Origin: Malacoraja senta
Taxonomy: Eukaryota
Reading direction: 5' to 3'
Assembly (NCBI GenBank): GCA_038087875.1
Contig: CM075992.1
Location: forward strand, 6,574,001-6,634,000
Length of the DNA stretch: 60,000 bases
The translations under genes were made by a program, and so were the position numbers. Positions 34,097-37,990 of the stretch are shown in pieces (position 1 is the stretch's first letter; every line of letters starts with the position of its first letter). The notes under the pieces are model-generated. The model searched no databases. It was not told the DNA's origin and worked only from the letters and a program-made list of their open reading frames with translations.

Positions 34097-34466
34097 GTGA
34101 GTACAGCTTAAACATGTATGAGAAACATCCGTGGGCTGTCTCTTGCCGATCTCACCCCGTGAATACATCCTTGTCATTCCTGCCTCTTGCCTTAAGGCTG
34201 TTCTGTTTTTAAAAGCTTGTATCTTCTGATGTATGTTCACAAGATTGGAAGTGTACTTCAGTCTGAACCTTAGTATATTTCTATAGAGTTTCCAAAACTT
34301 AATATCTGAACTATTGAGTGTGAGAATCACGCATTTCGACAAATTCTCACGCTCTCACGCTGATCACAAATTTCTCACGCTCTGTCGTGAGAAATTCTGT
34401 GATCAACGAAAATTTCAAAACTCATATCGACTGCATGGGTGTTGGAGAGTCGGGGCTGAGGGAGGG

Positions 34467-34718
34467 ATGGAAGCAGAAGCAGCGGAGGGGACAGATGCTG
34501 ACAGGGAGCCGGGGCTGGCGAGTGTTTGCCGGGCTGGTGAGTCGCTCGCTGCAGCTCCGGCCATGGAGCAGCCTCGGTGCAAGAGTCCCGGGCCGTCGGA
34601 GGTGTCGGAAGCGTTGCGCCGCTGCCGTGAGAGTCTCTGTGCCAAATTCGCCCAGGTGACCGGCATGGACCAGGCTGCAGCTCGGTGCATCCTGGAGGAC
34701 AACCAGTGGCTGCTGGAA
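34467..34718 (+). pseudogene. TDP2: Orphan TDP2-like first exon (UBA-like domain)
   Basis: 84 open codons ending RESLCAKFAQVTGMDQAAARCILEDNQWLLE then GTAAGT; compare human TDP2 RRLLCVEFASVASCDAAVAQCFLAENDWEME; no further TDP2 exons recognised. Confidence 0.72.
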
Positions 34719-34829
34719 GTAAGTACCAAGCACTGGGTAGAAACGGTGGAAGTTAGTGGCCTTCAAATGGGGTTGGTTGGAGAAAGCATCCTGCTTGCCT
34801 GCTAGATTTTCACTTACTATAACTGCAGG

Positions 34830-35162
34830 AAAAATGTTCCCGATGTTGGGGGAGTTCAGAACCAGGGGTCAGTTTAAGAATAAAGGGTAGGCCAGTTAGG
34901 ACTGAGATGAGGACAAACTTTCTTCACGCAGAGTTGTGAATCTGTGGAATTCTCTGCCACAGAAGGCAGTGGAGGCCAATTCACTGGATATTTTCAAGAG
35001 AGGGTTACATTTAGCTCTTGGGGCTAGCGAAATCAAGGGATATGGGGTAAAAACAGGAAAGAGGTATTGATTTTAGATGAACAGCCATGATCATATTGAA
35101 TGGCAGTGCTGGCTCAAAGGGCCGAATGGCCTATTCCTGCACCTATTTTCTATGTTTCTATG
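34830..35162 (+). mobile_element. CR1 LINE 3' fragment
   Basis: Similar to 18760-19094; ends tttctatgtttctatg. Confidence 0.85.
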
Positions 35163-36639
35163 CTTGAGTATATAGCAATAAAACTCGACCACTTGATTTT
35201 GAAGAATTCATGCATGATGGAGGTATAATGTAGTCATAGAGTGATACAGTGTGAATACAGGCCCTTCGGCGCAACTTGCCCACACCTGCCCACATGTCCC
35301 AGCTACACTACCTGCTTTTGGTCCATATCCCTCCAAACCTGTCCTATCCATGTATCAGTCTAACTGTTTCTTAAATGTTGGTATGGTCCCTGCCTCGACT
35401 ACGTCCTCTGGCAGCTTGTTCCATACACCACCACCCTTTGTGTGGAAAAAGTTACCCCTTAAAAAGTTACCTCTTAAAAATACTTCAAACAAAAAACATT
35501 GAAATCATACTTCTACAATGCACTAAAACATGATTTGAATGCATAAAATTCCAAAAAGTCCCTACCGTGGGAGGTGGTACAGCCCCCTCCCACACCCTCA
35601 CCCCACTCAGTTGCTCCACTCCCTCGCCAGGTACCCCCAAGGCCAGTGATCAGTGATTGCTCAGCTTCCCCTCTTTCAAAAACGTTCCGTGGCCCCTGGT
35701 TCAGACAGAGAACACTGCCAGATGTGAGCAGGGAACTGAGGTCAGATCCCAATGCTCAGTGCTTTGTGTTTCGGAGTTGGCTAATGTTATTGATTTGTAA
35801 TTAGCCTGATTTGTAATTAGTTGACAAAACCTTAATTTATTAATCCGGAATATCCAGGGGGATGGGATAAGTGTAATATTAAAATGACATGCAAGGTGTC
35901 AGGCTGTCTGTTACAACATACAGCCCCGATAATTCATTATTTCCTTCAGTTAAATATTGGGAAGGTAGCACTATTATCATTTGCCACTCAACTATTATGT
36001 TTGTTTACCTCACTGACTATTTCTAAACCACTCCCCCCCCCCCCCCCAAATTCCTTTGATAGGTTGAATAGAAATGTCCCCAATCTCGTAGTTTTATTAA
36101 TTGAACACGTAGATGAACATCCTCAAGGAGTGTAATCAGATGGAAACTGATTCAGATGCTATGTTTAAAAGCTTGTTCAAAGAAGGGGCATATTTTAAAG
36201 GAGTCACAGAGATACTTGCAGGGGAATGTGTGAAGAGGTTATTATTTGTCTTTAGTTTTAGCTTGAACCAGGACATCTGAAGATTCAAAGTTTAATATAG
36301 TAATTGTGCTGATACTGACTCCAACCAACCACATAATGAATATCATCCATTCCGGAGGTTTTATTTTTCTGATGCATTTAAACTTCACTTGGATTTCAAT
36401 CACTTTGATCTAAAAGTAATTGGGAATGGGGAGCATTGGAACAACAATTTGCTCTCTGTACATATTAACTAATATAATAATGTATGCATGTTGGTAGGTG
36501 CAATCAAAACACAGATCTTTTTATCATTGTTGTGTTATGAATACCACAGAAAATATTATGTACTATCAAGATCACATTTAATAGAATAATATTGCTTAAA
36601 TATATAGTTATTGGACTTTTCATTTTGGAAAAGTCCCAG

Positions 36640-36925
36640 CTGAGAGGAAGACAGCAAAATACTGAAAATATTGGGGGTGAAAATGACTTCAGGACAGTTT
36701 GTTAGGAAAATGAAGGAAATGGTAACATAATACATACAGCTAAGTGAGTATAATTTTATGGATGAGAAATTGTGTTCAACCAATTGATGACTTCTTTGAC
36801 AAAGTAACTAACATGTTAGATAACAAGGAAGCCAATGGATGTAGCAAATTTTGTTATACAAAATTTGGTCTGTGAAGTGCACCATAAAAGATTACCGCAT
36901 TAGATAAGCACCTGTGGACTTAAAC
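36640..36925 (+). mobile_element. Old CR1 RT fragment
   Basis: Degenerate C.TN...FFDKVTNMLD..MDV...HKRL similarity to ~17820-17970. Confidence 0.55.
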
Positions 36926-37990
36926 ATAATAGGTTAAGTCAAGGAGGTCAGATATGGGGCTTTATGTGTGGGCCAGATATATTGTCAGTGCAGAGGGGCA
37001 AGGAGCATGGCCAAGTGTGCATCCAGAGTCAAGGTCTGGAATAGTACTAGGTGTGCAGTCAAAGCTGGGACAATGGGAGTGTTCAGCACTGGCAACCTAA
37101 GCAGGTAAGCAGCTATGATCAGGGTAGAATAGGGGGCCAGGTGTAAGGCTGGACTCGGTGTCAGGAGTGAGAGAAGGTATGCAACTGGGGTCAGCAGTAG
37201 TACCAGGTGCGCAGTGAGACCCAGGTTGGTCAACATGGGCCAAGTATTTGATTATAATCTGATTTCCATACATGAATATACTAAGATCATTCATGTGCTG
37301 CACCTGTTGATCAGAGCCTGTCTCTACTGTGGAATGTAATTAGGAATGTAATTTAGCCTAACCTTATTCATAGCTAATCCAATTTAAAACATATATATTG
37401 CATTCAAGAGTACGTTCAAAGACTCACTACAATATGCACCATATTGCACAATTTCAAGCTTAAAAATGCAAAAGCCCCGTACCAATGGGAGGGGACACCC
37501 CCCCCTCCCACCCCACCCACCCCGGTCGCTACTCTCCCTCGGGCTTGGTCTCTTGCAATTTCTCACTCCCAACTCTCATCCAATGTTGGCAGCCCTGAGA
37601 TCAGCAAACTAAATTATGGGGGGTTTTAACTACTGGGCCATTTTACAATTTCTGTTATTTACTTGTGACTTTTAGAGATAGACACCTGCTATCCCATTAA
37701 GACAACAGAAGTCTACTCGGAAAAATATCCAATGTGTTGAGCATTTTGATATTATCGTATATTGAACCACCATGTTCAAGTTCATCGTCATGTGCACAAA
37801 TACATTGAGGTAGGTGCAGGTCCAATTAAAAATGTTGCTTGCAGTGACATCAGAGGCACATAGACAAACACACAAAAATAAATGATACATAAATTATACA
37901 CAAACTACACATGAAAGACAAACTGCAAAAAAAGAATATTAGTGGATAAACAAAGTCAAACAAAGAAACTGTTATTCAGATTTCTATATT

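Follow-up and report, generated by a model that had tools for sequence, protein, structure and literature searches.

How did an exon resembling the start of the repair gene TDP2 come to lie in an intron of an RFX-family gene? The question is raised by a 60,000-nucleotide stretch of Malacoraja senta DNA (GenBank assembly GCA_038087875.1, contig CM075992.1, positions 6,574,001 to 6,634,000, forward strand), hereafter the window. The original prediction, made from the letters of the window, was that a DNA transposon had captured TDP2 exon 1 and part of intron 1 at the DNA level, and the analysis bears this out more strongly than was claimed, with more than 1,000 places carrying the piece and its parents lying elsewhere. 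We give a probability of about 85% to the reading that the locus is one copy of a 3.3-kb terminal inverted repeat (TIR) transposon that carries TDP2 exon 1 and part of intron 1, likely because one DNA-level capture was then multiplied in a burst of transposition, and whose copies are likely inert passengers. The segment is not a single-copy sequence spliced to true TDP2 exons downstream, its peptide matches both TDP2 and a UBA-like domain, and the exon does occur together with transposon ends. The parts of the window copy are as follows (LINE, long interspersed nuclear element).

34313..37597, plus strand: whole element copy, 3,285 bp
34313..34432, plus strand: left subterminal region with TCTCACGC repeats and hairpins, shared up to ~34382 with a sister family
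34442..35459, plus strand: captured TDP2 fragment (5' leader, exon 1 and ~740 bp of intron 1), from blastn and alignments to both parents; left junction +/- ~10 bp
34467..34718, plus strand: 84-codon open frame, from translation
34563..34718, plus strand: 52 codons equivalent to the annotated TDP2 N-terminus, with a 24-bp in-frame deletion, ending in a partial UBA-like domain
34719..34724, plus strand: splice donor GTAAGT, phase 0, at the position of the parent exon-1 donor
~34824..35165, plus strand: CR1 LINE 3' fragment (3' piece of the reverse transcriptase), at the same place in parent intron 1
35231..35459, minus strand: second CR1 3' fragment, likewise found in intron 1 of the parents; the captured piece ends within it
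35446..35475, plus strand: 15-bp tandem near-duplication at the right capture junction
35476..35698, plus strand: internal transposon-like right end, ending in CCGTGGCCCCTG
35699..37250, plus strand: second cargo, ~1.55 kb
37251..37597, plus strand: transposon right end, 347 bp, shared with the sister family
37585..37597, minus strand: right 13-bp TIR, GTTGGCAGCCCTG, its sole exact match in the window

The full element is a non-coding, non-autonomous DNA transposon of ~3.3 kb with 13-bp inverted ends (CAGGGCTGCCAAC). Repeats and a hairpin had been noticed ahead of the exon; the three TCTCACGC repeats start at 34345, 34353 and 34373 and occur nowhere else in the window, and the hairpin folding of 34313-34432 has a z of -6.4 (0 of 200 shuffles were as good). 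The hAT-type end proposed at 37585-97 is indeed the TIR of the element, but as a canonical hAT end it does not stand, since none of the target-site duplications (TSDs) at 15 TDP2-carrying loci is 8 bp long. The left TIR was correctly described as absent, and the window copy lacks the terminal 21 bp (CAGGGCTGCCAACTCTCACGC) that other copies have and that begin there with the inverted repeat, but the extent of the element, then thought uncertain, is now defined as 34313-37597. No TSD is recognisable around this copy. The bases of its right flank are not repeated in the left flank (34283-34312), so the deletion of the left TIR probably took the target duplication with it, and because the left terminus is lost the copy is likely unable to move again.

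With the left 531 bp as query, a first look through the skate's genome brought up 2,950 candidates, 40 of which were scored; the 39 top matches other than the window are 90-93% identical to it and most start no more than three bases from 34313. For the right end there were 2,032 candidates. A 23-mer from the exon end has 1,065 matches with at most two mismatches (0 for its reversed control), a count that takes in the two parent genes and the window copy and to which unplaced contigs may add redundancy; the 23-mer detects five of six copies picked independently by their left end. Among the first 30 loci selected by the exon, 28 have the left end and 22 reach the TIR. In 27 of the 29 best-matching other copies the TIR lies just left of the base equivalent to 34313, the exceptions being L020, which lacks most of the TIR, and L021, in which an internal deletion has displaced it. 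Homology among copies ends at the TIRs and the flanks are unrelated. Copies with both ends and shared TIRs, as had been anticipated, were found at 23 of 40 long loci, and 18 of these have exact TSDs (nine of 6 bp, seven of 7 bp and two of 8 bp); four more have a TSD with one mismatch, one has none, and 2,000 shuffled pairings gave 0. At the 15 TDP2-carrying loci with both ends (1.6-4.1 kb), 11 TSDs are exact and distinct (eight of 6 bp, three of 7 bp) and three others have one mismatch. The 8-bp TSDs that had been expected thus gave way to 6-7 bp.

The 84-codon open exon at 34467-34718 and the GTAAGT that follows it are where they had been placed, 370 bp past the end of the upstream RFX exon (34096) and in the same orientation. 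The peptide matches Pfam UBA_4 above the cut-off (E 7.8e-05, model positions 2-29 of 43); the UBA-like domain is incomplete, and its remainder begins exon 2 of the parent. It also matches a TDP2 chain (6q00_B, E 0.0012), and residues 33-84 are identical to skate TDP2, the sole longer homologue among 247 candidates, at 44 of 54 positions from the second ATG on. The first ATG (34467) is present in parent A and absent from parent B, and skate TDP2 is annotated from the second; for these reasons 52 codons are taken as securely coding, and by sequence codons 1-32 are probably 5' leader. The predicted TDP2 N-terminus thus stands, but with only 52 codons that match annotated TDP2 and only part of a UBA domain.

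The parental locus, which the original prediction had proposed to seek, consists of two tandem seven-exon TDP2 genes at G000:C19:4603402-4712637, on a chromosome other than the window's. Their matched parts are without stops, and the nuclease exons of copy B have clearly moved further from skate TDP2 than those of copy A. Window 34442-35459 is collinear with exon 1 and intron 1 of both parents, and the CR1 fragments that had been seen in the intron-like DNA are two pieces that sit in the same places in parent intron 1; each parent has gained an insertion of its own since the capture. The nearest transposon ends of the same type lie more than 20 kb from exon 1 of parent A. No TDP2 nuclease exons were found outside the two C19 genes among 150 scored candidates, all 10 matches being inside them, in agreement with the predicted lack of such exons at the window locus. 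The 15-bp sequence at the right capture junction, tandem in the window copy, is single in 61 pattern matches elsewhere.

How many times the piece was captured can be read from a 24-bp segment present in both parents and retained by none of the 61 copies that cover the site. Because this deletion is common to all of them, a single capture appears to have been amplified. A tree was built from both parents and 46 of 63 copies, the other 17 having been dropped because of gaps or, for one of them, by name. The split between parents and copies stands at 100/100, and the copies radiate almost as a star, with a median tip of 0.033. The consensus of the copies differs from parent A at 6.2% and from parent B at 7.9% of 887 gap-free columns (93.8% and 92.1% identity); it stands against both parents at 36 columns, while 17 differences are unique to A and 32 to B. 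At three residues the element agrees with skate TDP2 and both parents differ. From these columns and residues we conclude that capture likely came before the tandem duplication of TDP2. Contigs from public runs of two other organisms (X1 and X4) span the junction between the left end and TDP2, which makes it probable that the family predates the divergence of several species; a third run, X20, is an exact match to the window flank and is not independent.

What the copies now do, if anything, was judged from their decay. The 33 copies not selected by their likeness to the window have diverged at non-CpG positions by 3.9% (exon) and 3.4% (intron), and at exon CpG positions by 14%. Nine of these 33 have an open 84-codon frame together with its ATG (four are only partly covered), the frame is open in 18 of the 30 best matches, and the donor GT is kept in 29 of the 30 best-matching copies; sampling by likeness or by an intact exon end is biased toward apparent function. 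With CpG sites left out, pN/pS over 59 copies is 0.81 for the 52 codons (p 0.14) and 0.95 for the 84 codons (p 0.64). The CpG ratio is 0.86 in the consensus and 0.68 in the window copy, whose loss of CpG at 7 of 50 positions is typical. Upstream of both parents lies a 233-bp block, 85% conserved, that ends before the capture breakpoint and was therefore not captured; we infer that it is the core promoter, and if so the promoter lies outside the captured piece. In contigs from 4 of 24 public runs (the 24 come from 12 studies and 8 organisms, and RNA is only guessed for 18), none of the 15 joints and 24 loose ends listed falls at the 34718 donor; the matches are swamped by CR1, include a further 286 joints and 2,420 loose ends beyond those listed, and carry no weight either way. 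The copies are very probably inert cargo. Two parts of the original prediction are not supported: the spread of a promoter, with the conserved block outside the captured piece, and a usable UBA exon, with the domain stopping at position 29 of 43, decay near neutral, and the donor out of frame with the next RFX exon. The two RFX exons concerned are these.

33808..34096, plus strand: RFX-family exon upstream of the insertion, coding part, 96 codons and 1 base, with a phase-1 donor GTGAGT
55737..55846, plus strand: next RFX exon, with a phase-1 acceptor, out of frame with the captured phase-0 donor if joined to it

Two other accounts of the copies were weighed. The first, in which retrocopies or segmental duplicates happen to have come to lie beside transposon ends, would fit the CR1 sequence in the captured piece and the re-amplification of some copies in a larger repeat unit; it is nevertheless refuted for practical purposes, and we rate it as extremely improbable, by homology that ends at the TIRs between unrelated flanks, by a separate TSD at each locus, by ~740 bp of intron 1 kept collinear with the parent and with its insertions (the retained donor was the ground on which a retrocopy had been argued against), and by nuclease exons confined to the two parent genes. 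Co-option of some copies, perhaps including the window's, is a more serious though still unlikely alternative. The CpG-rich exon would then act as an alternative first exon of host genes or encode a short TDP2 N-terminal peptide, and at the window a shortened RFX protein could start from an ATG in the next exon. The window copy, inserted in the sense orientation within the RFX intron, has an open frame, an ATG in a strong Kozak context and a GTAAGT donor, the GT is nearly always kept among the best-matching copies, there is a mild in-frame trend among the indels (below), and the highest copy numbers among bat Helitrons belong to captures of 5' ends (PMC4224331). Set against this are the uncaptured upstream block, the fall in CpG ratio, the phase-0 donor facing a phase-1 acceptor, and a partial UBA match with a near-neutral substitution pattern.

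As the type of transposase that moved the element, a canonical hAT was rejected on the 8-bp TSD, seen at 0 of 15 TDP2-carrying and 2 of 8 sister-family loci; of the exact TSDs, 9 of 18 (8 of 11 in the TDP2 family) are 6 bp and the rest 7 or 8. The termini presumably resemble those of Blackjack. Kojima 2025 (PMC12730594) describes hAT families with 6- and 7-bp TSDs, hAT6 and hAT7, the former in one lineage with Blackjack; like the element these have short TIRs and 6- or 7-bp instead of 8-bp TSDs, but each is defined by its transposase and a single TSD length, whereas the element has 6, 7 and 8 bp with the same ends and is linked to no transposase. In the search for a hAT transposase with the same termini, 30 of the 150 PF05699 matches were inspected out to 1.5 kb and none had such ends, nor did 20 further hAT matches classified from 1-kb pieces only; three larger hAT loci hold nested copies and not autonomous partners. 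Ten of the 61 pattern matches lie 3-7 kb from hAT matches, and the two opened (L249 and L250, on G000:C1432 and C3855) are rearranged copies of the TDP2 element nested in a larger repeat, re-amplified on several contigs, with a hAT C-terminal fragment and no partner. At L239 (G000:C1:249768500-249778400) a TDP2-carrying copy lies within the 3' part of a divergent hAT transposase remnant.

Mobilisation by a P-superfamily (THAP9-like) transposase, with the capture otherwise unchanged, is a tentative alternative to hAT. Several short subterminal repeats, as the element has, fit hAT and count against it. The 13-bp TIR is identical at 9 of 13 bases to the 13-bp TIR of zebrafish Pdre2 (PMC10983969), a comparison chosen after recall; Pdre2, however, has 8-bp TSDs and encodes a THAP9 transposase (PMC10983969, PMC7776569), neither of which is seen in the element. 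The scarcity of 8-bp canonical hAT duplications favours a P-type enzyme, as do the P-transposase loci of the genome, of which there are at least 150 and many of which have long open frames; in all four examined, the first intron holds a 22-bp end like the element's at 20-21 of 22 positions. Yet the terminus of that P family differs (CAAAGATACTAGAGG, 4 of 150 loci examined), the 22-bp piece is probably what remains of a single nested copy passed on within the family, the cited P duplications are 8 bp against 2 of 18 here, and the 6- and 7-bp hAT families supply another source of short TSDs. The P family (L240-L245, e.g. G000:C1:237358686-237363650) is young (the four loci opened are 96-98% alike); it has a THAP exon, transposase frames of up to ~790 codons and the 22-bp remnant of the element end in intron 1. 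The mixed 6-, 7- and 8-bp duplications point to an uncharacterised transposase.

Several points weigh against the reading of a single capture that spread as inert cargo. No autonomous element with these ends is present among the hAT and P loci examined. Not every exon match may be an independent insertion, since copies on unplaced contigs are perhaps partly redundant, and some copies are co-amplified inside a larger repeat unit. pN/pS is slightly below 1 (0.75-0.95), though not different from 1 once CpG sites are dropped, and 11 of 34 indels in the coding part are in-frame against 23 of 134 in the intron (p 0.058), an excess that leans mildly toward function, as does the bias of the sampling; a functional minority of copies may exist. 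The order of capture before duplication was reached without a DNA outgroup, and the same pattern could arise from gene conversion between the two parents.

A sequence of events consistent with these data can be proposed. A non-autonomous element would have taken up the TDP2 piece through template switching or gap repair, or alternatively through use of an outer end that took in neighbouring DNA, two routes that the data do not distinguish. This single capture would have preceded the tandem duplication of the parent and been followed by the transposition burst, and the element may have grown by further uptake of neighbouring DNA, giving the internal extra end and the second cargo. Mobilisation would have been in trans, with about even odds for a transposase of the hAT6/Blackjack lineage and lower odds for a P-type enzyme. 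The copies are probably methylated, since their CpG sites change about four times faster.

The element has relatives in the same genome. A left-end 27-mer has 541 exact matches, and the first 30 are 6 TDP2-carrying loci and 24 members of a sister family of ~2 kb whose ends are the same but whose interior differs. Sister elements (L109-L138 and L169-L188; e.g. L178:1-2060) carry a CpG-rich stretch and a GTGAGT donor in the same orientation, with CCAAT/TATA-like motifs by eye, and this cargo is possibly a second captured gene start. A composite sister element lies inside TDP2-A (G000:C19:4687337-4691275), and its three left ends, one right end and single 6-bp duplication around the whole suggest that elements grow via their outer ends, taking in neighbouring DNA. 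The same preceding flank recurs in 9 of 30 left-end loci, indicating that the composite itself spread.

Within the TDP2 element, the internal end (35476-35698) is ~76% like the element's own right subterminal region and was presumably derived from another hAT-type miniature inverted-repeat transposable element. The start of the second cargo is common to another repeat family (941 pattern matches), and a search for its parent with an exclusion pattern returned another repeat family instead of a parent. A second coding exon at 36113-36229, an exon-like frame of 39 codons, was rejected as unsupported: it has no Pfam match in 13 frames and no PDB match, and among 1.84 billion proteins only a copy of itself and no homologue was found; the adjoining frame has a weak ARHGAP12 match (E 0.31).

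By its biological features the element is a Pack-TIR in the sense of Tan et al. 2021 (PMC8277862). At 15 TDP2 loci of 1.6-4.1 kb the internal sequence lies between both ends of one TIR element, within the 100-5,000 bp that define the class, an identifiable parental host locus (the two TDP2 genes) lies elsewhere, the intron is kept, the parent is without flanking ends of the same element, and distinct TSDs (11 of 15 exact) record recurrent transposition. The cargo does not have the unique best genomic match that the Pack-TIR pipeline filters for, there being more than 1,000 copies and two parents, but this is a detection filter and not a biological trait; the filter probably misses high-copy families, so that part of their rarity is due to method. 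That survey, the sole systematic one of TIR capture in animals that we found, reports 370 cases in 100 genomes with a median cargo of 224 bp, nearly all single-copy (4 are multicopy), and its main text does not contain the word 'shark'. Its multicopy example Pack-hAT-N8_XT, with CAPSL 5' UTR (untranslated region) cargo in 3 copies, shares with the element a host fragment between TIR ends, a parent on another chromosome, distinct TSDs and a GC-rich 5' cargo. The skate element differs from the surveyed cases in its copy number, its ~1-kb cargo with a coding exon and donor, and its second cargo.

Among Helitrons, HelibatN3 of vesper bats has multiplied to a thousand copies with the promoter of NUBPL, its first exon and part of an intron on board (Thomas et al. 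2014, PMC4224331). The element works like HelibatN3 as a functional analogue only: Helitrons are rolling-circle elements without TIRs and TSDs, both of which the element has, and HelibatN3 includes the promoter, whereas the element is without the conserved upstream block. Helitron captures in Xenopus reach 17 copies (PMC12001565). Plant Pack-MULEs are likewise TIR elements with host-gene exon fragments, but belong to the MULE superfamily and engage in small-RNA cross-talk with their donors, a conflict described in maize (Muyle et al., 10.1101/777037); the element is compared with them by structure only.

Gene capture by TIR elements at this scale is rarely reported in animals, and the element is a plant-style outcome in a vertebrate in which the parent, the junctions and the relative age of the capture are all readable. 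The copy number, the coding first exon of a repair gene and the mixed duplication lengths set it apart within a known kind of element; no function is shown. No report of a TDP2-carrying transposon family was found in the full-text literature, Repbase, Dfam and subscription journals being outside its scope, and a consensus may be deposited unnamed in a transposable-element database; a batoid genome preprint has no mention of TDP2 or hAT. We suggest that such families hide in repeat libraries, where masking could hide exon 1 of a parent or create spurious UBA gene models. The family also lets one ask, in an animal, whether captured gene starts aid the spread of a transposon or drag the donor gene into silencing. 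A wider speculation, which we consider doubtful, is that a group of TIR transposons in skates and rays, with TSDs that vary from 6 to 8 bp, repeatedly captures CpG-rich gene starts (TDP2 exon 1 in this element, a promoter-like cargo with a donor in the sister family) and amplifies them thousandfold, the TDP2 copies acting on the host through small-RNA silencing of parent exon 1 (the gene being later duplicated) or as alternative first exons in genes such as RFX1.

The host gene was predicted to be RFX1. It belongs to the RFX family, with an RFX DNA-binding domain on the same strand 23 kb beyond the window end and a weak match of the exon after the insertion to RFX1_trans_act (E 0.028, under the cut-off), but we assume it to be RFX1 rather than RFX2 or RFX3. 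The upstream RFX exon contains a duplicated unit (33834-34040) in which CAG and CAA codons spell out long glutamine runs. Elsewhere in the window, frames on the minus strand at 4218-8000 resemble a degenerate retroelement that we take to be of DIRS type (tyrosine recombinase, RNase H, reverse transcriptase and a gag-like part). Long LINE frames lie at 15912-19016 (plus strand), 41744-46694 (minus strand) and 43093-44430 (plus strand), and we take these to be a CR1 ORF2 that is nearly complete but split in two, a Rex1/L2-like reverse transcriptase in duplicate and, between the latter, an L1/Tx1-like C-terminus.

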